Below are positions 1 to 64,000 of a stretch of DNA of 64,000 nucleotides, in pieces. Numbering within the stretch: position 1 is the first letter of the stretch; each line of letters opens with the position of its first letter. The position numbers and the translations under genes were made by a program. Source of the stretch: Escherichia phage ECO07P3. The stretch lies in the sequence record OP172786, one strand, 5' to 3'. The notes beneath the pieces are model-generated. The model had not been told where the DNA came from, ran no database searches, and saw nothing but the letters and a program-made list of their open reading frames with translations.

Positions 1-499
1 CCTTTTCTAGGACTTCAGAAGCATATTTAGAACCAGCTTTAACATTCCATCCCGAATTATAAGAGGATATTGCCTTTCTTATATCGCCCTTATGTATATT
101 TAACCAATAAGAAAGTTCAATGTACGCCCAGGAAGCTGAATTGGACCGTTTATTCAACATTCTTTTTATTTCAGCATCAGTCATATTATAACCAAGTTCC
201 TTAACTCTTGCTCGCATGGTCGGCAAATAATTTTGGAACATTCCATAGGCATGATGCTTTGGTTTAGATTTTAAATTAACTCCGGCAGAGCTTTCTTGCC
301 ATAAAATAGCAGCCATTATATGACCTAATCCGCTCTTATGGATATTTTTGTGTGTTTTATATTTTCCATCCTTAGAAAATTGTTCCCCGAATTGATACGC
401 GTAACGCATGTTATCGAGTTGGACATTACTGAAAGTATGCTCGGAGCTATGCGCCATCATTGAAATGGCCAATAGACCAGCGAGTAGTGCTTTTCTCAT
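1..499 (-). CDS. Secreted lytic transglycosylase (SLT-domain)-like protein, partial; C-terminus lies beyond the window start
   Basis: Own translation of the minus strand from ATG at 497-499: MRKALLAGLLAISMMAHS (signal-peptide-like) followed by WQESSAG...GMFQ...SYNSG, resembling SLT-domain E-S / GLMQ / AYNAG motifs. Sits where T4 vs.1 would be (inferred from gene order). Not in the ORF track because it runs off the edge. Confidence 0.6.
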   Translation of the reverse strand, partial: MRKALLAGLLAISMMAHSSEHTFSNVQLDNMRYAYQFGEQFSKDGKYKTHKNIHKSGLGHIMAAILWQESSAGVNLKSKPKHHAYGMFQNYLPTMRARVKELGYNMTDAEIKRMLNKRSNSASWAYIELSYWLNIHKGDIRKAISSYNSGWNVKAGSKYASEVLEK

Positions 500-506
500 G
501 CTTACC

Positions 507-968
507 TCATTGAGTTTTAATTACTGCTTTAGAAGCCTTTCCTGGTAAACGACGACTGTTAATAATTGCCATCCTGCATTGAAGCGACGGGTCTTTGAAC
601 TTCGCATTAGGTTTACAAACTGTAAATCCAAGCCAAAGATTTCCATCTGTGATTTCTAAACGCCCAGGACGATATTCAACCCCATCAATAAAATCCTCGT
701 CAATGTCAGGACGCGGAGGCATACTCAGGAATTCATTAACTTCTAAAACATGGTCTTTTATTTTATGGAATAATTCAAAAACATATGTCTCATCAATCTC
801 CCGTTGAATTGCACGATCAAGAAGATGCTGAGAATATTTTAGATGAAACGATGAGACCCCTGCTGCTTTTGATGCCTCACGAATCTCATTGTTAATTTGA
901 CGAAACTCCGACTCAAAGTGACGACGGAGCTTATTTCGACGGATAAAAACTTCTGTGTTGATAGTCAT
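507..968 (-). CDS. regB: RegB sequence-specific endoribonuclease
   Basis: 153 aa ORF beginning MTINTEVFIRRNKLRRHFESEF, matching my recall of T4 RegB in sequence and length; gene order. Confidence 0.9.
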   Translation of the reverse strand: MTINTEVFIRRNKLRRHFESEFRQINNEIREASKAAGVSSFHLKYSQHLLDRAIQREIDETYVFELFHKIKDHVLEVNEFLSMPPRPDIDEDFIDGVEYRPGRLEITDGNLWLGFTVCKPNAKFKDPSLQCRMAIINSRRLPGKASKAVIKTQ

Positions 969-1027
969 GTTATTCTCCTCTTAACTGATAGAAAAATTAT
1001 ACCACAGTCAAGAGGAAAAGTAAACAA

Positions 1028-1306
1028 TTATTCTTTAAATCTAATCAATTTATTCATAGACTTTGAAACTTCTGCACGAACATCATGTAGGTTTTTGAGC
1101 TGTTCAAGACGCTGCTCATAGTAAGCAATTTCATCTTCTTCGAGACAGTCCTGTGAATCTTCTTTAAGATAACGCGCATAGTCCTGGAAAGCTTTACGGA
1201 CTACTTCCTGGAAGTCATCAAGACTTTGAATTTTCTTAGGAGCAACAGATACACGACGAGGGGCAGTATAATACTCATAACCAAACCCTGCGCTTAATTG
1301 AGCCAT
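1028..1306 (-). CDS. Hypothetical small early protein (T4 vs.3 position)
   Basis: ORF-track ORF 1028..1348; the internal Met ([13 protein letters not shown]) abuts the stop of the upstream ORF, so the start is probably 1306. No recognisable domain. Confidence 0.45.
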
Positions 1307-1572
1307 TAATATTTTTCCTCTGGTTGGAACACAGCACGACAAGCCCACATACTGGCTTCTTTGAGTTTCGTTTTAGCAATAGTTAACTGATCGAGGCTTT
1401 CAGCATAATTCTTCGCGAATTCACAGTCTTCACAATTATCTAGTGCTTCCCAGAATTCGTCATATAAAGCATCAAAGATAAGTCCTAAACGAACTTCAGC
1501 ATCTTTGATAGCATTCACTTTACCGATTTTCTCTTCAGTATGTGGTTTATAACCTTTAATGTCTTCAATCAT
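1306..1572 (-). CDS. Hypothetical small early protein
   Basis: 88 aa ORF tightly packed with its neighbours; no recognisable domain. Confidence 0.45.
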
Positions 1573-1786
1573 ATTCTACTTCCTCACCAGTACATAAATC
1601 ATATTCAACTAAACGAATAGGTTCATGAATGCCATATCCTTGAACAGAAATTTCTGTCGTAGGATAAATTCCACTAATATCACCCATGTTCCACGCTTCA
1701 TTAAATTGTTGTTCGCCTGAATTACTAAACCATTCGGCGAAAGCATTTAGCACATCTTTAGAACCTTCAATAATTATTTTTGCCAT
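1565..1786 (-). CDS. Hypothetical small acidic protein
   Basis: 73 aa ORF ([16 protein letters not shown]...), tightly packed. Confidence 0.45.
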   Translation of the reverse strand: MAKIIIEGSKDVLNAFAEWFSNSGEQQFNEAWNMGDISGIYPTTEISVQGYGIHEPIRLVEYDLCTGEEVEYD

Positions 1787-2148
1787 TACAAGCTCTCAGT
1801 AAAGGTACGAGCGATAACGTCGCGCTGCTGTTCCGGAGTCAGAGAGTTAAAGCGAACTGCATAACCGGATACACGGATGGTCAGCTGCGGATATTTTTCC
1901 GGATGCTTAACTGCATCTTCCAGAGTTTCACGACGCAAAACGTTTACGTTCAGGTGTTGACCACCTTCAATTTTAACCGTAGGCTGTGGTTCAATTTCAA
2001 TTTCACGGGCATGCAAACCGTAGAAAATTTCCGGATCTACAAAAGAGTCCTCTTTAAAGGTTTTAGAGACAATAATTCGTGCTTGAATACCATCTTCAAA
2101 ATAAATAGTACCTTTATGTGTGCCTTCAAGAATTTGATATGCTTTCAT
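1786..2148 (-). CDS. Autonomous glycyl-radical cofactor, GrcA/YfiD-like (T4 Y06I-type)
   Basis: 120 aa; C-terminal ~60 aa ([61 protein letters not shown]) carry the RVSGY glycine-radical motif and match my recall of E. coli GrcA almost exactly; the N-terminal half differs. Confidence 0.85.
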
Positions 2149-2154
2149 ATAACC

Positions 2155-2535
2155 TCAATTAGAAAATAAATTTATCCAAGATTGTTCTTTAATTAAAAAT
2201 GGCTCAGAATCATATGCCATTAAACTTTGGGTGATTAGTCCTTTAAAAGGCCCATCAATAAATTCCATGGTAAAATATGGAATTTTATTCATTAATCTTG
2301 CATTAGGAGCAGTGCACAAAACTCTACATCCTTTGAATACGCCTTTTTGTAATTTGTATTGCTTAGGATAAAATTCGCTCAAGACGTTGTTATTTGCCAA
2401 AATTTCAAAATGATTCACCAATTTATTTTTAATAGTTTTTGGCGAAAAATAAAGATATTCGAAAAGTTGCGTATCTGTCATCATTGCATTCCGATTACGA
2501 AAAACTGTGGACGAGTAATACCACCAGTACAGCAT
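2155..2535 (-). CDS. Hypothetical protein
   Basis: 126 aa ORF; no recognisable domain; overlaps the next ORF by ~55 nt in a different frame. Confidence 0.4.
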   Translation of the reverse strand: MLYWWYYSSTVFRNRNAMMTDTQLFEYLYFSPKTIKNKLVNHFEILANNNVLSEFYPKQYKLQKGVFKGCRVLCTAPNARLMNKIPYFTMEFIDGPFKGLITQSLMAYDSEPFLIKEQSWINLFSN

Positions 2536-3020
2536 TTACTATTGCAGCAGTGTTGCACAGTTTCAATATGAATATCGTAAATTTTATCCATATCAGGAGA
2601 TTTAACAGGCTCATCGATTATATACAAAATTCGAGAAAGCGATAAACCTCTGAACTTGCTACCTCTATTACCAACAAAACTACGGACAGAATCGGTAAAT
2701 AAGCGGAATCGAATATCATCGCCAGAATAACGAGAAAATTCTTTTTTAATGTGGCCCGCAGAAATTTTAGCGTAAGCTGAAGTATTAGAAAGAACAATAA
2801 CTGTTCCACCATCATACAGCCAATTAGCAGCAAAGTTAGTCACAACAGTTGATTTACCAGATTGACGTCCACCATCTAGTCGAAGTGTGCAATACTGCTT
2901 AAGTAAGTCTTCAAATGGTGGGATATAATCGTTTTTACAAATTTCTTCTACTCTAGCATCAGAATGGTGTGTAAAAGCATTCATCAGGGATAGATAAGGA
3001 CCAGTTAAAAATGTTCTCAT
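2481..3020 (-). CDS. P-loop NTPase with C-terminal Cys cluster
   Basis: Walker A GGRQSGKST, Walker B-like ILYIIDEP, and C-terminal HCCNSKCC. Probable start is the internal Met (MRTFLTGPYL) preceded by agagagaataaaATG, rather than the ORF-track start at 3068. Confidence 0.55.
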   Translation of the reverse strand: MRTFLTGPYLSLMNAFTHHSDARVEEICKNDYIPPFEDLLKQYCTLRLDGGRQSGKSTVVTNFAANWLYDGGTVIVLSNTSAYAKISAGHIKKEFSRYSGDDIRFRLFTDSVRSFVGNRGSKFRGLSLSRILYIIDEPVKSPDMDKIYDIHIETVQHCCNSKCCTGGITRPQFFVIGMQ

Positions 3021-3195
3021 TTTATTCTCTCTAAATTTGGGCCATTCCATGGCGCATGAATTGTCCATTTCTGTATTTACCCATTACCGCACTTGGGCTC
3101 GACCTTATTACAGGTTGGCGGGAATCCCTCAGAATCATGAGGTCCAGCTTGTTCCCATGTTATTTGAATGTAAATAGGCCTAAGTATAGGCCTTA

Positions 3196-3441
3196 TTAAT
3201 TACCACGGGCTGCATTAGCAACGGCATAAGCGTACTGAACATTAGCGTCCTTAAACGTACCTTTAGAGGTATCTATTTCTGCCTTAAAGCCGCCTTTAGC
3301 CATAACATCAGCAAATTCTTTACGGAAGGCCATTGCATCAAGACCTTTCCATGATGATTTGTGCTTAGCGAATTCAAGACCAGCGTAGTTGACAGCTTTA
3401 GCCAATTTATTATCAATGACCCATTTACCGGCTTTAGGCAC
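3196..3441 (-). CDS. Hypothetical Lys/Ala-rich small protein (GTG start)
   Basis: 81 aa ORF. I checked the start codon: it is GTG (plus cac at 3439-3441). Frame is open upstream to 3576 with no ATG. No resemblance to the DenV C-terminus. Confidence 0.35.
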   Translation of the reverse strand: MPKAGKWVIDNKLAKAVNYAGLEFAKHKSSWKGLDAMAFRKEFADVMAKGGFKAEIDTSKGTFKDANVQYAYAVANAARGN

Positions 3442-3473
3442 AAACTTCGGGCCTTTTTGTTTAGAGAACAGTT

Positions 3474-3710
3474 TTAAATTCCAGCGATTAACTCGATTTG
3501 GCGTAAACGTAAAAATTCGAGTTTGTTGTAAAAGAATGTTACGTGGCCTGTGCCTAAGATAAATGTTGGAGAGATTTTAAAATCCTTTACACGTTTACCG
3601 TTTTGAACATGTTTACGGACTGCACCAAATACGCGTGGTAATTCACGATACTCAGCCATAAGATGTTGGTCGGTCAGTTCGGAAACGAGTGTTAAATTGA
3701 TACGAGTCAT
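3474..3710 (-). CDS. denV: Endonuclease V (DenV, pyrimidine-dimer glycosylase) homolog, truncated at ~78 aa versus 138 aa in T4; possible pseudogene
   Basis: [35 protein letters not shown]...[20 protein letters not shown] then stop. N-terminal catalytic residues (Thr2, Arg3, Arg22, Glu23, Arg26) are present; the C-terminal ~60 residues including the aromatic WYKYY segment are absent. The real start is the internal Met of the ORF-track ORF. Confidence 0.65.
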
Positions 3711-3734
3711 AATTTCCTCCAAGTAGTTGATGAA

Positions 3735-3770
3735 TGTATAGTATCAAAACCCTTGGAGGAAGTAAACAAC
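3735..3770 (-). promoter_or_regulatory. Early promoter upstream of denV
   Basis: Minus strand TTTAC, ~17 nt, TACTAT, then ggaggaaattATG. Confidence 0.4.
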
Positions 3771-4051
3771 TATTTTTCTGAAGCGCCTGAAATATATTTT
3801 TCAAGACGTTGTTTCATCAGCGAGCCGTTCTTAGCGATTTCTTCCGGTTTGTCGCACATACGCAACAAGGCTTCAAGCTTAACGATATCACTGGTGCGCT
3901 CAAATTTGCGAGTATCTATCTTACTAGCAAGTTCAGAAATACGTGCTAATAGACTTTCAGCTTCAACCAAAGCTGCACCTAGCTTAGTTGCAAATGTGTC
4001 AGTAGCTTCGTTAAGAATAGATTCTGATAAAAATTCACTATATGTTTTCAT
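3770..4051 (-). CDS. Phage internal protein (IP) with capsid-targeting sequence, at the ipII/ipIII locus
   Basis: Starts [10 protein letters not shown] from the internal Met, fitting the T-even capsid-targeting sequence consensus MKTYQEFIAE with the gp21 cleavage context L-x-E; lies between denV and e. Confidence 0.7.
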
Positions 4052-4536
4052 ATATACGCTTTCCAAGTTCCTGTTTTAAATGTTGAGATTACGCGTTTAG
4101 CGCGATTAGGTGTCTGACGGTACCATTTAGATTGGGCTAGATTTACTGCCGCTTCGTCCCAGCGTTTCTGTTGAAGCATACGAAGAGAATTAGTAAAACC
4201 AGCGACGCCTGCTACGCCCATTTGGAAGACCATATTGACCAACGCACATCGACGAACTGCATCTAAAGAATCATATACCGGTTTAAGTTTAGCATTACCC
4301 AAGATTCCGCGAACGGCTTTATCAACGTCTTCATTAAATAGCTTTTCAGCCTCATCAAGGGTAATTGTACCGTTGCATTTACGTCCGATCATTCTGTCAA
4401 GTTCAGCTTTAGCTACGGCTAAAGACGGGTTCTTTGTTACTAAATGGCCTATGCCAATCGTCCAAAAGCCTTCAGTGTCTTTGTATAAAGTCAGTCTAAG
4501 ACCTTCATCTATACGCAACATTTCAAATATATTCAT
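4048..4536 (-). CDS. e: Lysozyme (endolysin, T4 e homolog)
   Basis: 162 aa; [21 protein letters not shown]...TIGIGHL and ...RAKRVI..F.TGTW align closely with T4 lysozyme but with many substitutions. Confidence 0.95.
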
Positions 4537-5013: not shown

Positions 5014-5498
5014 TTTAATTTCCTGCATTCAGTGATAAAGTTATTTAAATTTTGAGCATATTTCTTTTCATCAAAAATCTTTTGCTGCCTACGTAAACGC
5101 CATGGCATTTCAATGAACACGCACCATATTCCTGATAGTACTGCTGCTGTAAAAATATTAACAAGTATGATTAAAAGAATCCAATCTCCCGTTCTGCCTA
5201 CTGGACTTTCTCCAAAGAAGCAAAATACAAATGATGTCACAGGAAAACTAATAATATACCACAGAATCATAATCTTATCTGTGAACCAATCAGCGTTCGT
5301 TAATTTAGCGCGACCATTATGAATACACACGAATTTATCATCTGTTGCAGTAGATGGCTTAACTGGTTGATATCCCATTCTAAACTCCCTAATCAGCAAA
5401 TTTTTCATATCTTCGGAACAGCCATTCCAGTCAACTCTATCAACTGAAATGCCATCGTCCCCATCATCTAAATCATACCAGCGAGTTTTTAAAATCAT
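5010..5498 (-). CDS. Small membrane protein (soluble N-terminus, hydrophobic C-terminal half, C-terminal ...ITECRKLK)
   Basis: 162 aa; hydrophobic segments ILWYIISFPVTSFVFCFF and WILLIILVNIFTAAVLSGIWCVF; ATGA start/stop overlap with the upstream gene. Confidence 0.5.
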   Translation of the reverse strand: MILKTRWYDLDDGDDGISVDRVDWNGCSEDMKNLLIREFRMGYQPVKPSTATDDKFVCIHNGRAKLTNADWFTDKIMILWYIISFPVTSFVFCFFGESPVGRTGDWILLIILVNIFTAAVLSGIWCVFIEMPWRLRRQQKIFDEKKYAQNLNNFITECRKLK

Positions 5499-5869
5499 CT
5501 GATTTTCCTACAATCACTCACAAACTCTTTCATTGATTCATTTTCAATATAAGACATGTAGCTATTATATTCTTTTAATTGTATTTTGTAATCCTTTTTT
5601 CTTTGCCAATTTATTTTAAAATTATCATAATGAAAATATAACATGGTACCAAAGAATGAAAATAATGAAATTGCTATAGTATAACGAAGTTCACTCCAAA
5701 CTTCTATTATATCTACTATACCACTGACATTACTGCGGATGTTTAAAATAATACAATCAATCATTAATCCAATAAGACTACCAGCAAGAGCTGCAGCCAA
5801 CGCCACAGCAAAAATTAAAAATGACTCAGAAAAAGAATATTTAACTTTATTTAGTTTTGGCTTTTGCAT
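5495..5869 (-). CDS. Small membrane protein (two predicted TM helices, C-terminal ...VSDCRKIR)
   Basis: 124 aa; hydrophobic segments FLIFAVALAAALAGSLIGLMI and TIAISLFSFFGTMLYF; AAGGA six nt upstream of the ATG. Confidence 0.5.
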   Translation of the reverse strand: MQKPKLNKVKYSFSESFLIFAVALAAALAGSLIGLMIDCIILNIRSNVSGIVDIIEVWSELRYTIAISLFSFFGTMLYFHYDNFKINWQRKKDYKIQLKEYNSYMSYIENESMKEFVSDCRKIR

Positions 5870-6243
5870 CGTGATTCCTTAACAAATTTCATAATTTCGT
5901 TAAATTCATGCATATCTAATTTAAGCTGGTGTTCCTTTTTAATCTTTTTACACTGAGCTTTCCATTCGCGTACACGTTTACGATAATGTCTTCCTTGATA
6001 CCAATATCCTACCCAATTTACAGGTACCAATAAAAATGGAACTACTAATGGAAGAATTAATACTAACAAAAATATTACGCCAGATTCAATATCAGTCATA
6101 AAGTCTATAACCATTCCAATAATCAATAGAATTACAAATGATATAGCTGTCACAGGACCTATTAATACATCAGTAGGAATTAGCTGGCGCTTTAATTCAT
6201 ACTTCAACGGTTTACTTGGAAGGTATAGTGATGGTTTTGACAT
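5851..6243 (-). CDS. Small membrane protein (two predicted TM helices, C-terminal ...VKESRCKSQN)
   Basis: Hydrophobic segments VTAISFVILLIIGMVIDF and VIFLLVLILPLVVPFLLV. The ORF-track start at 6264 is a TTG; probable start is ATG at 6243 (MSKPSLYLP). Confidence 0.5.
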   Translation of the reverse strand: MSKPSLYLPSKPLKYELKRQLIPTDVLIGPVTAISFVILLIIGMVIDFMTDIESGVIFLLVLILPLVVPFLLVPVNWVGYWYQGRHYRKRVREWKAQCKKIKKEHQLKLDMHEFNEIMKFVKESRCKSQN

Positions 6244-6820
6244 ATTCTCTACATTCCTTAACAAATTTTTCTAGTAATAAATCACTTTCAAAATTAGGAT
6301 TTTCCACTAATTTATCAAAAAGATCATCAACAATATTCAAGATATTTCTTTTACTAAGAATACGTTTATTTTCATGTTTCGTTTCAGAATCAACTATAAG
6401 AGTAAAGAAATATTTCTTTCCCTGAAATTTTACTGTAGTATCAATATAGAATAAATTTGACTTTTGTAAGTTACGTTTAAACCATGCGTCACTTAAACTA
6501 TAAACACCGAGATAATCAAAATCGTCGTTTAAATAACATACTGTCCATTCAGGAGAAATGAAATCAGTAAATTCAACATCAAAATCACACGTCAATGAAT
6601 GAATTGATTCAATACTGTTAATAAGTATTCCAGGGCGTATTAAAGACTTTTTACCTCTAGAAAATCTTCCAGAAAGACTTTCATCAGTTTCATATGAAGA
6701 CCCCCAATAGTAATTACGTCCTTCTGCCATACGTTTAAGAGCATTTAGTAATTGGTCTGGAACATCAACCTGTCTTTGGAACTCTTCAAACATTGAATTG
6801 AAATCACTTTGCATTTTCAT
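6212..6820 (-). CDS. Hypothetical protein (202 aa), first gene of the membrane-protein cluster
   Basis: ORF followed tightly by the three small membrane-protein ORFs; C-terminus ...KFVKECREYVK overlaps the next gene's ribosome-binding site. Confidence 0.5.
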   Translation of the reverse strand: MKMQSDFNSMFEEFQRQVDVPDQLLNALKRMAEGRNYYWGSSYETDESLSGRFSRGKKSLIRPGILINSIESIHSLTCDFDVEFTDFISPEWTVCYLNDDFDYLGVYSLSDAWFKRNLQKSNLFYIDTTVKFQGKKYFFTLIVDSETKHENKRILSKRNILNIVDDLFDKLVENPNFESDLLLEKFVKECREYVKTITIPSK

Positions 6821-6841
6821 TCCTATTTACTCCAAGTAATA

Positions 6842-6855
6842 GGGGCCGAAGCCCC
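6842..6855 (-). terminator. Intercistronic GC stem-loop (ggggcTTCGgcccc); RNA hairpin, possibly terminator or stabiliser
   Basis: Perfect inverted repeat with a UUCG-type tetraloop between two minus-strand genes; no clear U-tract follows. Confidence 0.4.
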
Positions 6856-6861
6856 TTATCA

Positions 6862-7455
6862 TTATTTCAGAGAATTAATGTATTCCTGAACATCGGCAGA
6901 GGTAGTTTCAACCCCAGAAATATTACCATTAAAGGTTTCAACTCGAGCAAGGGTATCTTCAATATCAACCTTAGTCAGTGCTGCAATTTCAACTACATCA
7001 TCAGCAGTACTAATTCCAAGGGCATTTGCCGCACGAGTTTCACGGATATATTCCAATTTAACTGCAAGTTCTTGGCGAGCATCATCTAACTCAACTACTT
7101 TCTTGGCGATTTCAATTCGCATTTCAGCATAACCGTCAGCTTTAGTAGTCAACCGTTCAGCTGTTCGACGATATAGTAAACCGAGTTTAGCATGCATTGT
7201 TACATCTTGACCTTCGGAAAGAAGTTTTCGAATTTCACGCTCTTTTGATTCAGCCTGTCGATTCTTTTCGATAACAAGTTCACGAATACGTTTTTCTTCA
7301 TTAATAGATTTAACAGAAGCAGTTTTTAGATCTTTAATTTTATCAAGCAGTTTTGCTGCTGCAGCAGTATACTGTTCTTCAACAGATAGATTTTTAGCCA
7401 TAGCAGAACCAAGTTTAGTGCGAATAAACTCAACAATTTTCTTCAGTGTGTTCAT
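6862..7455 (-). CDS. Coiled-coil protein; PspA/IM30-like is speculative
   Basis: 197 aa, strongly helical with charged heptad-like composition ([41 protein letters not shown]...). Confidence 0.5.
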
Positions 7456-7498
7456 AGTATTTCCTTAGGTTAATTGAGATTTAAAATCCGTGGGAGTA

Positions 7499-7675
7499 TT
7501 ATACTCCAAAGAGTTTATAAACTATTTCGACATCGCCTTTTGCTGCTTTATAACCTTCAGCCCAGGATACAACCGAATTTTTATCTGAAGATTCAAACTC
7601 TGGCATTGGGCTTTCACCAATATTCACGCAGTATGTTTCTTCATTCTCGTCGAACCAAATAATTAAAGTAGTCAT
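7499..7675 (-). CDS. Small hypothetical protein (58 aa)
   Basis: My own minus-strand translation (MTTLIIWFDENEETYCVNIGESPMPEFESS...); GGAG-containing RBS upstream; below the ORF-track length cutoff. Confidence 0.3.
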   Translation of the reverse strand: MTTLIIWFDENEETYCVNIGESPMPEFESSDKNSVVSWAEGYKAAKGDVEIVYKLFGV

Positions 7676-7749
7676 TTATTTCTCCGTTTCTGTATTTGTT
7701 TTGATAAGTCTATAATAACACCATCCTTGGTGTTTGTACATCATTATTT

Positions 7750-8055
7750 TTAATTTTTCCAACTTAACAACTTGTAGTGTCCTTCATTCATACGTGGTTT
7801 ATCCCAAGAAATACTAATATATGATTCACTGTCAATAGAAGTCGCCGGGTTTTTCTCTACCGTAAGACCTTCACTTTCCAGCCATTCAATAGTATTTGCG
7901 CATAAATCGGAAGAACACCTCATCGGAAACCGGCAAGATTTTTCACCTTTAGATGCAGCGTTATACATCTTTTCTAAAATACGCTTTTGCACGTTTTTAA
8001 AAATAGTTTCAGCGGATTCTTCAGATTTTTTATTCAGTTCAATATAAAGACTCAT
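7750..8055 (-). CDS. Hypothetical protein
   Basis: ORF-track ORF 7750..8082; the first ATG overlaps the promoter -10, so the probable start is the internal Met (MSLYIELNKK) with gagaag upstream. Confidence 0.45.
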   Translation of the reverse strand: MSLYIELNKKSEESAETIFKNVQKRILEKMYNAASKGEKSCRFPMRCSSDLCANTIEWLESEGLTVEKNPATSIDSESYISISWDKPRMNEGHYKLLSWKN

Positions 8056-8077
8056 AACATTCTTCTCATTAATAGGG

Positions 8078-8112
8078 CTCATAATATCTCAATCATGAGC
8101 CTGTGTAAACTT
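8078..8112 (-). promoter_or_regulatory. Early promoter (minus strand)
   Basis: Minus strand TTTACA, 17 nt, TATTAT. Confidence 0.4.
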
Positions 8113-8374: not shown

Positions 8375-8414
8375 TTTATTCTCCAAGTTGTTTTCTGTAT
8401 CAGTAGTTGATAGT

Positions 8415-8450
8415 TGTATAGTACCACGGAAGAACATGGATGTAAACAGT
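8415..8450 (-). promoter_or_regulatory. Early promoter (minus strand)
   Basis: Minus strand TTTACA, 17 nt, TACTAT, then ggagaataaaATG. Confidence 0.4.
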
Positions 8451-8580
8451 TTTGTGAAAAAATTTTAAAAAGTTTTAGGGAATTCTAGGGAAGGGATGGG
8501 CAATTAAAGGATAGGATAATATATTATAAAGGGTATAAACTAAATGATGCCTAGAGAGGCGCGGAAAGGCCTAGATACCA

Positions 8581-9841: not shown

Positions 9842-9917
9842 TGGTCGAGGCAGTAGGGATCGAACCTACGACCTAGGACTTAGAAGGTCCTTGCTCTTCC
9901 TTCTGAGCTATGCCCCG
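9842..9917 (-). tRNA. tRNA-Arg (anticodon TCT)
   Basis: Cloverleaf folded by hand from the reverse complement; anticodon loop cTTCTaa; T-loop GGTTCGATCC; CCA encoded. Confidence 0.85.
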
Positions 9918-9921
9918 TAAT

Positions 9922-9997
9922 TGGGGTGACCGATGGGAGTCGAACCCATGACTACGAGAATCACAATCTCGAGTTCTACCAACTGAACTACGGCCAC
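9922..9997 (-). tRNA. tRNA-His (anticodon GTG)
   Basis: Anticodon stem cgaga/tctcg with loop ttGTGat; T-loop GGGTTCGACTCCC. Not part of the T4 set as I recall it. Confidence 0.75.
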
Positions 9998-10111
9998 ATT
10001 AATACCTACTCCAACAATCAAGATGTCTTCACACGAAATTAAGAGAAGAGTGATCAGTTCAACCCCGATAATCGCGTCAAGTAGATATTAATGTGACAAT
10101 TGTCACAAATT

Positions 10112-10186
10112 TGGCGGACGTGATAGGATTCGAACCTATAACCAATCGCTTAACAGGCGATCGCTCTGCCATTGAGCTACACATCC
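10112..10186 (-). tRNA. tRNA-Asn (anticodon GTT)
   Basis: Anticodon stem atcgc/gcgat with loop ctGTTaa; T-loop GGTTCGAATCC; CCA encoded. Confidence 0.8.
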
Positions 10187-10190
10187 AAAT

Positions 10191-10277
10191 TGGTGGGGAG
10201 TGATGGAGTCGAACCACCCGAGTCGCAATGACAATGGATTTACAGTCCACACCGCTACCTCTACGGGATAACTCCCC
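10191..10277 (-). tRNA. tRNA-Tyr (anticodon GTA), long variable arm
   Basis: Anticodon loop ctGTAaa; class II variable arm; T-loop GGTTCGACTCC; CCA encoded. Confidence 0.75.
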
Positions 10278-10290
10278 TTAATTCTTAATT

Positions 10291-10365
10291 TGGTGGCCCT
10301 GGGTGGAATTGAACCACCATCTGGCGATTATGAGTCGCTTGCTTGAACCTTCCAGCTACAGGGCC
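10291..10365 (-). tRNA. tRNA with CAT anticodon (Met, or Ile if lysidine-modified as in T4 tRNA-Ile)
   Basis: Anticodon loop ctCATaa; T-loop GGTTCAATTCC; CCA encoded. Confidence 0.75.
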
Positions 10366-10366
10366 T

Positions 10367-10443
10367 TGGTGCTGATTGACGGAATCGAACCGCCGACATC
10401 CTCATTACAAGTGAGTTGCTCTACCTACTGAGCTAAATCAGCA
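10367..10443 (-). tRNA. tRNA-Thr (anticodon TGT)
   Basis: Anticodon loop cTTGTaa; T-loop GGTTCGATTCC; CCA encoded. Confidence 0.8.
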
Positions 10444-10447
10444 AAAC

Positions 10448-10537
10448 TGGCGGAGGCGATAGGATTTGAACCTATGAGTCGCCGGAGCGACTGCCGGTTT
10501 TCAAGACCGGTGCATTAAACCACTCTGCCACGCCTCC
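10448..10537 (-). tRNA. tRNA-Ser (anticodon TGA), long variable arm
   Basis: Anticodon stem ccggt/accgg with loop cTTGAaa; long variable arm; T-loop GGTTCAAATCC; CCA encoded. Confidence 0.85.
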
Positions 10538-10539
10538 AG

Positions 10540-10613
10540 TCTCCATACAAGGATTTGAACCTTGGGCCTCCTGATCCCAAATCAGGCGCTCTACCAAACT
10601 GAGCTACACGGAG
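10540..10613 (-). tRNA. tRNA-Pro (anticodon TGG)
   Basis: Anticodon stem cctga/tcagg with loop ttTGGga; T-loop GGTTCAAATCC; CCA not encoded. Confidence 0.8.
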
Positions 10614-10623
10614 TAAATTAAAT

Positions 10624-10697
<74 letters not shown>

Positions 10698-10702
10698 AAA
10701 TT

Positions 10703-10789
10703 TGGTGCGAGAAGTGGGACTCGAACCCACAAGGAAATCATTCCGCAGCATTTTAAGTGCTGTGCCTTTACCAATTTGACCATTCTCGC
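10703..10789 (-). tRNA. tRNA-Leu (anticodon TAA), long variable arm
   Basis: Anticodon loop cTTAAaa; long variable arm; T-loop GGGTTCGAGTCCC; CCA encoded. Confidence 0.85.
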
Positions 10790-10790
10790 G

Positions 10791-10863
10791 CTGGGAATAA
10801 AGGACTCGAACCTTTGCATCCTGGAATCAAAATCCAGTGCCTTACCAACTTGGCTAATTCCCA
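10791..10863 (-). tRNA. tRNA-Gln (anticodon TTG)
   Basis: Anticodon stem ctgga/tccag with loop ttTTGat; T-loop GGTTCGAGTCC; first gene of the cluster in transcription order. Confidence 0.85.
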
Positions 10864-11841: not shown

Positions 11842-11860
11842 TTTATTCTCCTCTGTAGTT

Positions 11861-11905
11861 GATAGGGTAATAGTATCACTACCCCATCTAAAAGTAAACT
11901 GTTTT
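11861..11905 (-). promoter_or_regulatory. Early promoter plus stem-loop cassette
   Basis: Minus strand: TTTAC, 17 nt, TACTAT; embedded inverted repeat gatagggta/taccccatc; followed by gaggagaataaaATG. Confidence 0.45.
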
Positions 11906-11911
11906 TATAAA

Positions 11912-12220
11912 CTATTTTATTCCGCGTGATGCAATTGTGTTCTGCCGTTTAACACCAGTTTGTTTAAAGTCATGATTGTCGATTTGATCGGTACGAGCAA
12001 CACCGAATGATGATTTAATCTTAGCTTTAGATCCTTTAGTTATAGAAATAAACATCTCGGAAGCCCCTTTCTTAAAGTCCGAGGCGATTACTTCAACGCC
12101 GTTCTTAGCAAGTGACCTCAGAATTGCCTCCGCGTACTCATCATCAAGACTCGCCTGAGTATTAATAACGAATGTCTTTGGTGCAGCCGCTTCATTGATA
12201 AATTCTTGATATGTTTTCAT
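11912..12220 (-). CDS. Internal protein with capsid-targeting sequence, at the ipI locus
   Basis: MKTYQEFINEA from the internal Met is a near-consensus capsid-targeting sequence; lies next to 57B where T4 ipI sits. Exact start (12220 or 12232) is uncertain. Confidence 0.7.
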   Translation of the reverse strand: MKTYQEFINEAAAPKTFVINTQASLDDEYAEAILRSLAKNGVEVIASDFKKGASEMFISITKGSKAKIKSSFGVARTDQIDNHDFKQTGVKRQNTIASRGIK

Positions 12221-12249
12221 TTTGATTTCCATTTAGTTTTGTTTTGATA

Positions 12250-12290
12250 GGGTAATAGTATCACAACTAAACCACCGTGTAAACAATTTA
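12250..12290 (-). promoter_or_regulatory. Early promoter (sigma70-like -35 TTTACA / -10 TACTAT)
   Basis: Minus strand GTTTACAC, 17 nt, TACTAT, upstream of the IP gene. Confidence 0.4.
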
Positions 12291-12560
12291 TTTTAAATAA
12301 ATTGCATATTTTTTATAACCAGCCGTCTCGTGACGCAGACCTTTTTCATTAGCAAAGCGTTCAATATTATTAATTTGATTCTGATCAAGTTCTGAAATAT
12401 CAAATACAAAAAAGTTTCGTTTATTTCCTAACGTTACATGATTCGTCAAATCAATGTTATAAAGATGATTTATATTATCAATCATAGTCTTAACAGATTT
12501 GCTAATTTTTACTTCTTCATTAAGAGCAGATTCAACGATAAACTCTTTGAAAGTTTTCAT
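12288..12560 (-). CDS. Second internal-protein-like gene with capsid-targeting sequence
   Basis: 90 aa; N-terminus MKTFKEFIVESALNEE fits the capsid-targeting consensus. Confidence 0.6.
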   Translation of the reverse strand: MKTFKEFIVESALNEEVKISKSVKTMIDNINHLYNIDLTNHVTLGNKRNFFVFDISELDQNQINNIERFANEKGLRHETAGYKKYAIYLK

Positions 12561-12580
12561 TTTATTTTCCTAATTAATTT

Positions 12581-12625
12581 TGATGAGGTAATAGTATCAC
12601 TACCTCATCAACGTGTAAACAACTT
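12581..12625 (-). promoter_or_regulatory. Early promoter plus perfect 10-bp stem-loop cassette
   Basis: Perfect inverted repeat tgatgaggta ... tacctcatca around the TACTAT -10, with -35 TTTACA upstream (minus strand); followed by ggaaaataaaATG. Confidence 0.45.
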
Positions 12626-12632
12626 TGTGAAA

Positions 12633-13329
<697 letters not shown>

Positions 13330-52362: not shown

Positions 52363-52775
52363 TATTTTCCAGCCTCAAATGCTCGCATGTCTTGAATATG
52401 CTTAATAGCAAATCCACGTGATTTAATAGCATCAAGAGCTCCGCTACAAAAATCCAATAAAATTCCCCAATATTGTAATGAAGTATCAACTTTTAAAACA
52501 TCCTTATCAGCTGATAGAACTGTCTTCATTTCTGATTTCTCATAACGATCCATACTAAATTCATCACCATCTCCTCGTCCCGAGTAGTAGTCTAATTTAG
52601 CTTTAAGAGCAACTTTTTTCTGTGCGTCAATTCTAAGCATTTCCTTTTTAATACTTGAATGCTTATTAAGCCATTTACTATATAACATCACATTATTAGC
52701 TGCTTCATACTGTAATTTAGTCGAATCTATAAACACATCTTTCTTCAATTCTTCTTGAAGATCTTCTAATTTCAT
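52362..52775 (-). CDS. uvsY: UvsY recombination mediator
   Basis: 137 aa, same as T4 UvsY; gene order. Confidence 0.9.
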   Translation of the reverse strand: MKLEDLQEELKKDVFIDSTKLQYEAANNVMLYSKWLNKHSSIKKEMLRIDAQKKVALKAKLDYYSGRGDGDEFSMDRYEKSEMKTVLSADKDVLKVDTSLQYWGILLDFCSGALDAIKSRGFAIKHIQDMRAFEAGK

Positions 52776-52841
52776 ATTGTTCTCTATTCAATTGTTATTG
52801 GATGGACTTAGATTCATTATACCACGTTTATACGTGAAGCA

Positions 52842-53240
52842 TTATACTCTGTTACTGGAAGCCAGTTGCAATTTTATCTGCTCAATATCATCAGGGTTAT
52901 CGATGACCGAAAAGCGTATTTCTACTATCAGAGTATAATCATCATAAACCGGTATTACATTAACTGCTAATTTATCAATACGTGGCTCGTAGTTTCTTAC
53001 TGCGCTTTCAATGTTACGCTCAACAGTATCAGCAGTAAGAGGAGTCATATTCTCAAAAAGCTGATCAGATAAATCACATCCAAATTCCGGGTCAAATGGT
53101 CTCGACCCTTTTCTGGTTGTAATAATTCCTAAAAGGCTATTTTTAATTGACCTTAATCCAAGAGATCTAGAAACATCTTTGTCCCAATCCATTTTCATTT
53201 CTGGGTCAATGTCAGAATAAAGCTTATTAATATTTGCCAT
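52842..53240 (-). CDS. 25: gp25 baseplate wedge protein
   Basis: 132 aa; gene order. Confidence 0.9.
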   Translation of the reverse strand: MANINKLYSDIDPEMKMDWDKDVSRSLGLRSIKNSLLGIITTRKGSRPFDPEFGCDLSDQLFENMTPLTADTVERNIESAVRNYEPRIDKLAVNVIPVYDDYTLIVEIRFSVIDNPDDIEQIKLQLASSNRV

Positions 53241-53866
53241 TACAATAGCTCAAAGAATTCTTTGAGTCCTCTTATTACATGAGCGTGAGATTTTCCACAC
53301 TCTGGACATTTAATCGGAACAGCCAAATAAACAGTAGGCTTTAAAAGCATATCTTTTATAGCTACAATATCTGACTCTGTGATGATAGAATATAAATCTT
53401 CCAACTCTTTTTCATTCAAGTCTTCAATTGGAATGCTTTCACCGTTAGCATGAATCGTTTCTATACATGATACTATCATGTGGGCTATATTTTTATCATC
53501 AAAAATTTTAGGGTAATGGAACTTAATTTTAATGTCACCCAGTGTATACCAGAGGTCTTCTGGTGCATCTATTTGCGTATGTAATAGATTTATATGGGTT
53601 GGTATTTCAGTTCCACAGGTGCACTTCCAGGAGTTTTCGTGATTAACTTCTCCAAGAGAATGCGCCCATAAATGAATCAACAGTAGCTCTGATTCTTGAC
53701 GGTTTAAATCTTTTGCATTTGTACAGTCTTTAATTAGCTTTTTAACGATCTCTTCTACTGAACCGTTCTTTTTAGCAGTAATAAGTTCTAGATATTCTTT
53801 AAGAGTAAATGCACGACAGTTGATTATTTTAGAACCAACTCTCACGTCAAATTTGTATTCATACAT
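53240..53866 (-). CDS. 26: gp26 baseplate hub protein
   Basis: 208 aa; gene order. Confidence 0.85.
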
Positions 53867-60535: not shown

Positions 60536-62593
60536 CTACATTTTGAACTTTTTAGACATTCCGTTAATGTTAACCAAAGAAGCTAAGATTTGAGAAACTT
60601 CGTTTTCCTCTTCTTTTGATTCTTCTACAAGGAATTGATTAAATCCAGCCATTGGACGAACTTCGCCAGTTTCCATTAGATGGTCGCCATCATATACCGA
60701 TTCCTCTAATTGTTCAGAAGGAGGAACGATTGTACCTTCTATTAGATACTTGTTATAAGCAGTTTCTTTCATAAAGTACGTACTTACTTTATTAATCTTC
60801 AGTAAAATTCCGCGCGGTAGAATAACTTCAGCTTCTGATGGAAATCCTGATAAATGACCTGGAACGATAACTTTGATTCGCTCAGCCCCTTTAATTACCA
60901 TACCCACGCTAGTTTCAGCATCTTCATTCGCGTAAGCAGAGTGACTGCCCATATGCATTAAATCTTCAGCATCAACTGAACCTTCTCCTTCACCAGAAAA
61001 TACTGCACCAGAATCATCTAGGGCCATATAGTTTTTACCATACTCACCGAAGATATTTGGTTTAAGCGATGTTGATACGAAGTTCTTGAAATAGAACATT
61101 TTATTTTCAATATTATGGCGTAAAGTTTTAAAAGTAACTTCTTGTCCACGATAAAGCGTAGTTCCTGGAGGAAGAACTGATCCTTTGGCGAATGCAGAAT
61201 CCAGCGTCTCGATGTGTTTAATAGCTCGTTCCATGTATTCTTCACGGGTAGAATCTGGTTTACCCAAGAGGAACGAGTTCATTTCAACATATGAATCTGC
61301 ACAATAATCTTCAATTACATCAGACTCAGCCTGAGTTAATCCTTTTGGGGGTACTTCGGTACTTGCATATTCATACGCTTGAGAAGCAGACTCATTAATC
61401 AATTTATAAATGCCATTCATGACAAATTGAACAATAGCTATCTTTTCGTCTGGCGTGGCTTTAGAACCTTTAACTAAATCATTGACGATTTTCTTAATAA
61501 CATCAAAGCTATTAGAAATATTAATGTCAGCAAGATCGCTTAAAATTTTATCAGTTTTATAATCAAAAAATTCTTTATTCTTTAAATATTCCTGAGAACC
61601 TTGATATGTTATATCGCTCTGTAACTTGATAGATGGATCACGTAAACGCGCATGAGCCAATGCAATATGATTTCGGAAGTTTTCTAGTTCATAATCGCTA
61701 GATTTAAAACGAGAAGCACTTCTCATACCACCGATAGCTCCTTTGCTGAAGTTTGAACCAATCTGAATAACGCCAGAGTTCATTGGTCCTTCTGCTTTAT
61801 ATACCGGAACTTTAGATTCAAACTCTTGATATTTCTTGGCAGCGAAGCTATCACCCTGAAGCGAAGCATCTACAGTAGAATATTGAGCTTGCGCTGCTAA
61901 TCGACGACTAATTTTAGTTTTCTGAATAACAGCTTGATCCGTGCGCTTATCATTTTCTAAAGCAATAGAAGCAGCAACAGCAACAGCTTTAGGAACAGCA
62001 TTACCTGTTTTAACATCTACATAAACATCACCAACCTTTGATTCAACTTTTGTGAATAACTCAGTTGAAATAGGAGGTACACCTGGAATGTCTTCTAAAT
62101 TGGCATTTTTACGGTAAACCATAATATATGCATACTTTTTATCATAATCCCAGATTTCCTTTAAAAGAACATATCGACCTGCTCCTTTAGTACGTACTAA
62201 ACGGTCAGCAATAACTTGCATTTGACGAGCTGCGCCATTTGTTTTACTTTTTAGTACGCGGAATAGGCATGCGTCAATTTTATACTGTTTCATTGTTTGA
62301 AGAGCAGTATCAAAAACCGCATTAATAACACCAATTGGATTTCCACCCAAGTTTTTAAGTTTAACTAATGATAATTTCTCATTAACACCTATCATTACGA
62401 TATGCATCATTTTATCGCCTGGCTTAACGTTTTTATTTGTATCACCGCCAGAGGTGTATGTACAAAATCTAAATCCAGGAAGCACACTTTCTTCACCGGC
62501 TTGAATAGCGAAAATTTGAGGTATTTTATGCTTAGGATTTAAGTTAACAACCGGCGCCGAAGCGCCGTCAAATAATTCTGTAATAAGTTCCAT
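60536..62593 (-). CDS. alt: Alt ADP-ribosyltransferase (packaged, injected)
   Basis: 685 aa; C-terminal R-S-E type catalytic region (TLYRGQ ... FVSTSL ... EAEVILPRG); position after gene 54. Confidence 0.85.
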   Translation of the reverse strand: MELITELFDGASAPVVNLNPKHKIPQIFAIQAGEESVLPGFRFCTYTSGGDTNKNVKPGDKMMHIVMIGVNEKLSLVKLKNLGGNPIGVINAVFDTALQTMKQYKIDACLFRVLKSKTNGAARQMQVIADRLVRTKGAGRYVLLKEIWDYDKKYAYIMVYRKNANLEDIPGVPPISTELFTKVESKVGDVYVDVKTGNAVPKAVAVAASIALENDKRTDQAVIQKTKISRRLAAQAQYSTVDASLQGDSFAAKKYQEFESKVPVYKAEGPMNSGVIQIGSNFSKGAIGGMRSASRFKSSDYELENFRNHIALAHARLRDPSIKLQSDITYQGSQEYLKNKEFFDYKTDKILSDLADINISNSFDVIKKIVNDLVKGSKATPDEKIAIVQFVMNGIYKLINESASQAYEYASTEVPPKGLTQAESDVIEDYCADSYVEMNSFLLGKPDSTREEYMERAIKHIETLDSAFAKGSVLPPGTTLYRGQEVTFKTLRHNIENKMFYFKNFVSTSLKPNIFGEYGKNYMALDDSGAVFSGEGEGSVDAEDLMHMGSHSAYANEDAETSVGMVIKGAERIKVIVPGHLSGFPSEAEVILPRGILLKINKVSTYFMKETAYNKYLIEGTIVPPSEQLEESVYDGDHLMETGEVRPMAGFNQFLVEESKEEENEVSQILASLVNINGMSKKFKM

Positions 62594-62596
62594 GAT

Positions 62597-64000
62597 TTAT
62601 CCTTGAACGAACTTGTAAGGCATGTTTGTAATATCTATGCAAGACGCAATAATTCCAAGAGATGATTCTACTTTTTGTTTAACATTTGATGAAACAAATG
62701 ATGCAAAGTCAACTCTGTCTTCTATTTCAATATCACCTGTCATTGCAACTACTTCACCAGTTTCCATTAGACGGTCACCGTCATAAATGACTGATTCGGT
62801 GAGTTCTTCCGTAGTCATAACTTCAGCTTGAATGAGTTTTGTATTATTAGATGTTGTTCCGTCGTTATTAGAAGCATCAGTTATTTTATTAACTTTGACC
62901 ATCAATCCGCGTGGTAGAATAACTTCAGCTTCTGTTGCTATTCCGAGACTTCCTGGATATACAACATTAACTTTATGAGCTCCATCAATTGCCCATCCTA
63001 TTTGAACTTTAACGTATTCAGGATTTTCTTTATACGCTCTTATTTCGTTTGGATTAATAGTTATTCCTTCTTCATTTTTATCAACTGTTAATTCATTACG
63101 AGCTTCTGGTTCTAAAAGACCAATACCAGCATGTGTAATTCCAAAACGCCCAAAAATGATAGGAGTTAAAGAAGTAGATACAAAATTTCTGAAATAGAAC
63201 ACTTTATTTTTAACTAGTGCTTCGTATATAGGAGCAGTCATACTTTGTGCACGATAAACTGTAATGCCTTCCGGTATACGGTCACCATTTTCAAAAGCTG
63301 AATCTAAGTTATTTATAGCAGATTCAATTTCTTTTTCACTCATTACATCATATCGTTCTGGATTGTAGCGTCCTAAAAGAAGATTATTGATGTCAGTATA
63401 TCCTGAACCACAATACTCTCTAATGCCGCGCTTTTGTGATGGAGTATATTTAGAACCATCACGGGCAATAGTAATATCAATCATTGGACCTGCACCAATT
63501 CCAGAAAAGCTATAAATCATTCGTTTGAGGAATTTAGTTTTTGCTGCGTTCCAGGAATTTTTAGTTATTTCTTCCCAGACTTCATCTGGCTGTCCTTTAC
63601 GGGTTTTATTATGTTTATCAAGCCAAGTATCTTTATATTCTTCAAAGAATTTATTAATAGCTGCTGCATACTTCTCTAAACATTTTATTGAAGTAGTCGG
63701 TTCATTTTTGATCGCGTTAAAAATTACATCTTTAATTTTTTCAGAAACTTCATTAACCTCACTTTTTGAAAAGAATTTATAATCATAGTGAAGTTCATCT
63801 GCAGTTCCTTCAGCAATAATTTTTGCTGCCTTAGTTTTAGAAGCCAATGAATTAATTCCAAGTTTCATTTCTTCTGCTTCGGGAATTAAAGGAGCGGTAG
63901 CAGGTTTATTGAAATTAGCTGCGGTAGATTCATACTTCTGGAATAATTCGCTTTCAAATCTAGAAGATTCTAATGATTGACTTTGTGCAATTGCTCTACG
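62597..64000 (-). CDS. Second Alt-like ADP-ribosyltransferase (paralog); N-terminus lies beyond the window end
   Basis: ORF-track ORF starts at 63868 but the frame stays open to the window edge. I translated 63869-64000 in frame (RRAIAQSQSLESSRFESELFQKYESTAANFNK...), which resembles Alt residues RRLAAQAQYSTVDASLQGDSFAAKKYQEFESK. C-terminal catalytic region VYRAQ ... FVSTSL ... EAEVILPRG is paralogous to Alt. Confidence 0.75.
   Translation of the reverse strand, partial: RRAIAQSQSLESSRFESELFQKYESTAANFNKPATAPLIPEAEEMKLGINSLASKTKAAKIIAEGTADELHYDYKFFSKSEVNEVSEKIKDVIFNAIKNEPTTSIKCLEKYAAAINKFFEEYKDTWLDKHNKTRKGQPDEVWEEITKNSWNAAKTKFLKRMIYSFSGIGAGPMIDITIARDGSKYTPSQKRGIREYCGSGYTDINNLLLGRYNPERYDVMSEKEIESAINNLDSAFENGDRIPEGITVYRAQSMTAPIYEALVKNKVFYFRNFVSTSLTPIIFGRFGITHAGIGLLEPEARNELTVDKNEEGITINPNEIRAYKENPEYVKVQIGWAIDGAHKVNVVYPGSLGIATEAEVILPRGLMVKVNKITDASNNDGTTSNNTKLIQAEVMTTEELTESVIYDGDRLMETGEVVAMTGDIEIEDRVDFASFVSSNVKQKVESSLGIIASCIDITNMPYKFVQG

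Follow-up and report, generated by a model that had tools for sequence, protein, structure and literature searches.

Results

Genes and features of the denV locus

The window (the whole 64-kb stretch of DNA analysed) carries a minus-strand locus in which remnants of denV and ipIII lie between two flanking genes. In the direction of transcription, its features are the following.

4048..4536, minus strand: gene e (T4-type lysozyme), the upstream flank of the locus
3770..4051, minus strand: intact gene for a 93-aa internal head protein, between e and denV, with an N-terminal capsid-targeting-type sequence
3738..3767, minus strand: T4-early-type promoter upstream of denV (GTTTAC-N18-TACTAT), retained
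3474..3710, minus strand: truncated denV (pyrimidine-dimer glycosylase / endonuclease V), with its ATG at 3710 and its TAA stop at 3476..3474
3482..3487, minus strand: proposed deletion junction, the single retained TCGCTG copy of a 6-bp direct repeat
3196..3486, minus strand: ipIII 3' remnant (internal protein III), codons R97-N192 and the stop
3196..3441, minus strand: 81-aa ORF with a GTG start, equal to IPIII residues 112-192 (GenBank WAX13405.1, 'internal protein III', phage ECO07P3)
3176..3193, minus strand: terminator-like hairpin directly after the ipIII stop codon, retained
2481..3068, minus strand: gene at the T4 vs.8 position (195 aa; assigned by position only), the downstream flank

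The minus-strand ORF 3722..3474 contains denV, whose 78-aa product reads MTRINL...RQIELIAGI and then stops. An exact-sequence lookup identified this protein as GenBank WAX13406.1, "endonuclease V" of Escherichia phage ECO07P3 (166,565 bp). With the 81-aa ORF also matching exactly, this phage is the probable source of the window, which is from a Tequatrovirus. The fragment scores 40.3 bits with the Pfam profile PF03013 (Pyr_excise; cut-off 23), the match taking in positions 1-65 of the 81 in the profile. The fragment also aligns one to one with residues 1-76 of T4 endonuclease V (PDB 2END and 1VAS; 138 and 137 aa; E = 3e-42), and 70 of these 76 residues (92%, counted from the alignment) are identical. 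Authentic DenV sequence thus comprises codons 1-76 (3710..3483), and codons 77-78 (GGA ATT, Gly-Ile) and the TAA stop derive from ipIII, read in another frame. An earlier reading of the locus from sequence alone had described a denV truncated at ~78 residues with its N-terminal catalytic residues kept. Both points agree with the alignment, in which Thr2, Arg3, Arg22, Glu23 and Arg26 are all retained in invariant columns. The alpha-amino group of Thr2 is the DenV nucleophile, and Glu23 is a catalytic residue. Compared with the close relatives GRNsp7 and Lutter, the remnant carries a single amino-acid change, D62N (codon at 3525-3527, minus strand); residue 62 is D in both of these phages and in T4.

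A complete DenV domain is expected to comprise ~137-138 aa. Here residues 77-137/138, ~45% of the protein, are gone. As the sequence-only reading had held, no frame encodes a DenV-like C-terminus: three-frame translation did not reveal the C-terminal half near the locus, and a search did not find it elsewhere in the 64-kb window. That reading had also suggested a tblastn check in related phages, and a 137-aa DenV query matched 1118 phage records, in 1093 of which the match extends over at least 80% of the query. An ~80-aa form is therefore not a trait of the family, and a naturally short isoform can be ruled out.

T4 endonuclease V is a small, single, compact three-helix domain, with its third helix and a C-terminal aromatic WYKYY segment lying beyond residue 76. 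Since the enzyme is a single domain and both of these elements are missing, a protein without residues 77-138 should be inactive. denV is thus best read as a pseudogene, so that DenV-dependent repair of UV dimers should be lost and the phage would be without DenV activity. The early-type promoter upstream was positioned by alignment with its counterpart in Lutter, which is annotated as a promoter (L001 1832..1861); a sigma-70 consensus scan made no call for it.

The downstream ORF had been described as unrelated to its surroundings, a description that an alignment of the IPIII proteins of T4 (193 aa), GRNsp7 (192 aa) and ECO07P2 with the frame in the window overturns. The frame from 3483 to 3199 encodes IPIII residues 98-192, with the in-frame remnant beginning at R97/W98 (tblastn E = 6e-60). 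Over these residues it does not differ from GRNsp7 IPIII, and residues 97-192 of the remnant are ~96% identical to T4 IPIII (NP_049735). Unlike T4 IPIII, the remnant is without a promoter, a ribosome-binding site, a start codon, the first 96 residues and the N-terminal capsid-targeting sequence. T4 internal proteins are packaged by means of this N-terminal sequence (PMC9391042). The motif, MKTYxEFIAEA, is absent from the remnant, and similar sequences occur in the window only in other internal protein (IP) genes. Because targeting sequence, promoter and start are all missing, the IPIII remnant should be unable to serve as a virion protein or to be packaged and injected in the manner of IPIII.

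The 81-aa ORF starting with GTG at 3441 is a by-product of ORF calling, this GTG being the first start in the ipIII frame that a caller would accept. The frame does remain open upstream into denV, as had been noted, extending ~30 codons to about 3566. This is a consequence of the out-of-frame join, the stretch being open by chance. The GTG is preceded, at 10 nt, by no more than a weak AAGG, so its translation is probably poor. The denV promoter would drive one transcript across both remnants. Pfam holds no model for IP proteins. In the depositor's annotation both fragments are correctly named by family (endonuclease V and internal protein III).

A programmed frameshift producing a DenV-IPIII fusion was also considered, the ipIII frame being -1 relative to denV, but inspection of the sequence ahead of the stop revealed no slippery heptamer of the form X XXY YYZ, and this candidate was rejected.

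Comparison with related phages

In a megablast search of 50,697 phage records, window positions 3000-4100 are fully covered by many Tequatroviruses, always as two or three pieces. The matching pieces span ~1.8-2.4 kb in these phages (~1.9 kb in the closest), compared with 1.1 kb in the window. The closest phages at the locus are GRNsp7 and Lutter (~98.5% DNA identity), onto which the region maps as two pieces in the same order at 98-99% identity. Both share the order nudE - e - IP(93 aa) - denV(137 aa) - ipII-like(84 aa) - ipIII(192 aa) - gene at the vs.8 position, with ipIII on the same strand as denV and 331 bp downstream of it. Neither the place in the gene order nor the orientation of the 2481..3068 gene differs from that in GRNsp7, Lutter and ECO07P2.

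Between the flanks, the window is missing 808 bp relative to GRNsp7 (positions 52,481-53,288 of that phage) and 809 bp relative to Lutter. What is missing is 185 nt of denV (codons 77-137 plus the stop codon), all of the ipII-like gene (255 nt, 84 aa), an intergenic region, and 293 nt of ipIII (codons 1-96, including the capsid-targeting sequence). The intergenic region contains the homologue of the ipIII promoter and ribosome site (L002 2570-2635; the promoter is annotated in Lutter at L001 2574..2603). The segment was not found to have been relocated: neither the missing DNA nor what it encodes (the C-terminal part of DenV, the ipII-like protein and the N-terminal part of IPIII) was detected elsewhere in the 64-kb window. 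The sole matches were weak ones, at ~12.2 and 12.5 kb, where other IP genes have their promoter and capsid-targeting regions.

The difference between 809 and 808 bp is due to a 1-nt indel in Lutter that splits the ipII-like gene. The Lutter annotation divides this gene (L001 2315-2570) into two short CDS that overlap (gp126 and gp125), and that of GRNsp7 gives one 84-aa CDS. The Lutter indel appears to have frameshifted this accessory gene in a separate event.

The order of e, denV and the IP genes varies among Tequatroviruses, T4 having e-ipIII-ipII-denV-vs.8. In ECO07P2 (L004 10396-12826) the order is e-IP93-104 aa ORF-ipIII-157 aa ORF, and the annotation shows no denV in the interval from e to ipIII. 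This sibling phage is the closest relative in backbone, at 99.3% identity over window positions 1-3158, but reaches only 92% in the ipIII remnant. Since its layout also differs here, the locus is assigned to the GRNsp7/Lutter type.

The junction

A deletion between short direct repeats is expected to leave flanks in the order and orientation of an undeleted relative, with the repeat present at both breakpoints of that relative and one copy at the join. All of these features were observed. In GRNsp7, TCGCTG occurs at L002 2112-2117 (denV codons 75-76) and at L002 2920-2925 (ipIII codons 96-98). A base-by-base display against GRNsp7 revealed one TCGCTG copy at the join in the window and no extra or novel bases. 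By pairwise BLAST, the window flanks match L002 1501-2117 (98.9%; 7 mismatches in 617 nt) and L002 2920-3407 (98.2%; 9 mismatches in 488 nt), and the two matches overlap by six query bases. Given the local base composition, microhomology of at least 6 bp is expected at a random junction with a chance of ~0.002. The reading frame is not preserved across the join, since 808 = 3 x 269 + 1.

TCGCTG is found five times in the 1.3-kb denV-ipIII stretch of GRNsp7 (L002 2112, 2331, 2655, 2806 and 2920). In addition, the 9-mer formed by the denV I-A-E codons (ATCGCTGAA) recurs in the ipII-like gene and in ipIII, within the codons for EFIAEA of the capsid-targeting sequence. Thus, longer microhomologies for other deletions exist at this locus, yet they were not used here.

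A single 808-bp deletion accounts for every feature of the locus. We consider it very probable, reading from the deposited sequence, that a recent, lineage-specific deletion at microhomology left the two gene fragments. The ancestral Tequatrovirus locus would have been e - IP(93 aa) - denV - ipII-like - ipIII. A single event between two TCGCTG copies, either replication slippage or illegitimate recombination, would then have removed 808 bp. With the join out of frame, DenV would run to residue 76 and then close with Gly-Ile and a stop, and the 3' half of ipIII would be left as a fragment with neither promoter nor start. That both remnants are undecayed suggests that the event was recent. Some points weigh against this interpretation: the best comparators are only ~98.5% identical at the locus, the backbone relative ECO07P2 is laid out differently, and repeats longer than TCGCTG were available and were not used.

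Alternative explanations

An artefact of assembly or consensus calling would imply that the phage stock holds the intact locus, or a mixture, and that the deletion arose in the assembler or from a sub-population. The rarity of the junction is consistent with this: a junction-centred 200-nt query was covered over at least 80% of its length by 0 of the 50,697 phage records, and exact searches for the junction string gave no hit in IMG/VR, JGI metagenome contigs or GTDB contigs (one genome per species). However, a 6-bp repeat is far too short for an assembler to collapse 808 bp, and the single remaining repeat copy with clean, same-order flanks has the appearance of real T4 deletions (PMC9391042). 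A true deletion carried by a sub-population would, moreover, still be a real biological event. As 6-bp repeats do not collapse assemblies, we regard an artefact as improbable. A sequencing error that restores a 138-aa frame, which the sequence-only reading had named as the result that would overturn its view of a truncated gene, does not apply either, since no single-base error could do so.

The same reading had explained the locus by recombinational replacement of the denV 3' half, leaving either a pseudogene or a chimeric region. Replacement by foreign or unrelated DNA draws some support from the mosaic nature of the locus, which is ordered differently in T4, GRNsp7/Lutter and ECO07P2, and from the change in the best relative of the window around it. 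Beyond the junction, however, the sequence is that of ipIII, and the very relatives that match both flanks at 98-99% have this gene just downstream of denV; the join contains no novel bases. Replacement is thus extremely unlikely, and in its form with an unrelated ORF it is refuted by the identity of that ORF; the deletion between TCGCTG repeats fits instead. Intergenomic illegitimate recombination at the same 6-mer would be indistinguishable from an intragenomic deletion and equal in outcome. Of the two outcomes that had been offered, the pseudogene stands as the best reading of denV and the chimera does not, since nothing foreign is inserted.

It is also conceivable that the remnants act in the cytoplasm, either as the 78-aa DenV peptide or as a truncated IPIII expressed from the denV promoter and GTG 3441. 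In favour of this, the promoter of denV and the catalytic residues of its product are kept, neither remnant has decayed, and IPIII expressed in the host cytoplasm is active without its capsid-targeting sequence (PMC9391042). The loss from IPIII, however, extends well beyond the ~10-residue targeting sequence to 96 of 192 residues, and the GTG has little in the way of a ribosome-binding site. The DenV peptide is missing the third helix and the WYKYY segment of the known structure. An undecayed state is equally expected after a recent deletion, and functional remnants are therefore hardly credible.

Discussion

Spontaneous deletions of 0.7-6 kb with microhomology at their flanks have been described in experimentally evolved T4, where the amplifications that accompanied them had measured microhomologies of 6-10 bp at their borders (PMC9391042). 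In the same study, ipIII was lost in 3 of 5 evolved lines at the cost of no longer infecting E. coli ECOR17, and a viable genome-reduced T4 without vs.3-denV and ipIII has been reported elsewhere (PMC9825161). The event proposed here resembles the spontaneous T4 deletions (Srikant, Guegler and Laub 2022, PMC9391042) in its sub-kb to kb size and in the one short repeat copy left behind. As in the T4 cases (PMC9391042, PMC9825161), it affects ipIII and denV, two genes that are not needed for growth on laboratory hosts. It differs in that it is found in the deposited genome of an environmental isolate rather than in an evolution experiment, and in that no compensating segmental duplication or amplification was detected within the 64-kb window. 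Because the gene order is unlike that of T4, one small deletion disables denV, the ipII-like gene and ipIII together. The junction itself and this three-gene hit are specific to this genome; the gene families and the class of event are already known.

The truncated denV allele retains a sequence close to that of T4 endonuclease V over residues 1-76 and an early-type promoter as annotated in Lutter, and it differs in having Gly-Ile-stop in place of residues 77-137/138. Sensitivity to UV is predicted to be increased, as in denV-minus T4. Virions are predicted to be without the IPII-like protein and without IPIII, and the phage may possibly fail to plate on IPIII-requiring hosts, such as E. coli ECOR17 in the case of T4. 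The phage should remain viable, since the lost genes are dispensable in T4; their dispensability is taken entirely from the T4 literature (PMC9825161, PMC9391042). For annotation, both short CDS are best treated as fragments of one deletion event and flagged as such, not listed as an intact "endonuclease V" and an intact "internal protein III".

The locus is a case of ordinary loss of dispensable genes, with no new gene formed, and provides a natural and clean example of accessory-gene loss by microhomology like that seen in T4 experimental evolution. It is very unlikely that the deletion is adaptive, or that the C-terminal half of IPIII, made from the denV-promoter transcript, keeps a cytoplasmic anti-defence activity. 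If the deletion were adaptive, loss of the IPII-like protein, IPIII or DenV would have been selected on the isolation host, for example through escape from a defence triggered by an injected internal protein or through restoration of headful size after a gain elsewhere.

Other features of the window

Outside the denV locus, the window is also mosaic relative to ECO07P2 (L004), in a comparison that covered window positions 1-25000. Identity is 94.7% over 5495-7749, and positions 5031-5495 and 7749-8111 have no match in that phage. A minus-strand cluster of 11 tRNA genes is located at 9842-10863 (Arg, His, Asn, Tyr, Met(CAT), Thr, Ser, Pro, Gly, Leu and Gln), and ECO07P2 has the same set of 11.

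Direct repeats are present in two further regions. A 61-nt family with 60-77% identity occurs at 8407-8467, 11859-11919, 12244-12304 and 12580-12640; its members contain, on the minus strand, motifs resembling T4 early promoters, and two of the copies are situated a short distance upstream of further IP-type genes with capsid-targeting-like N-termini, near 12220 and 12560. Two pairs of direct repeats (50-64 nt, 78-80% identity) are found ~2.09 kb apart, at 60645-60847 and 62736-62944, which suggests two diverged paralogous genes in tandem.
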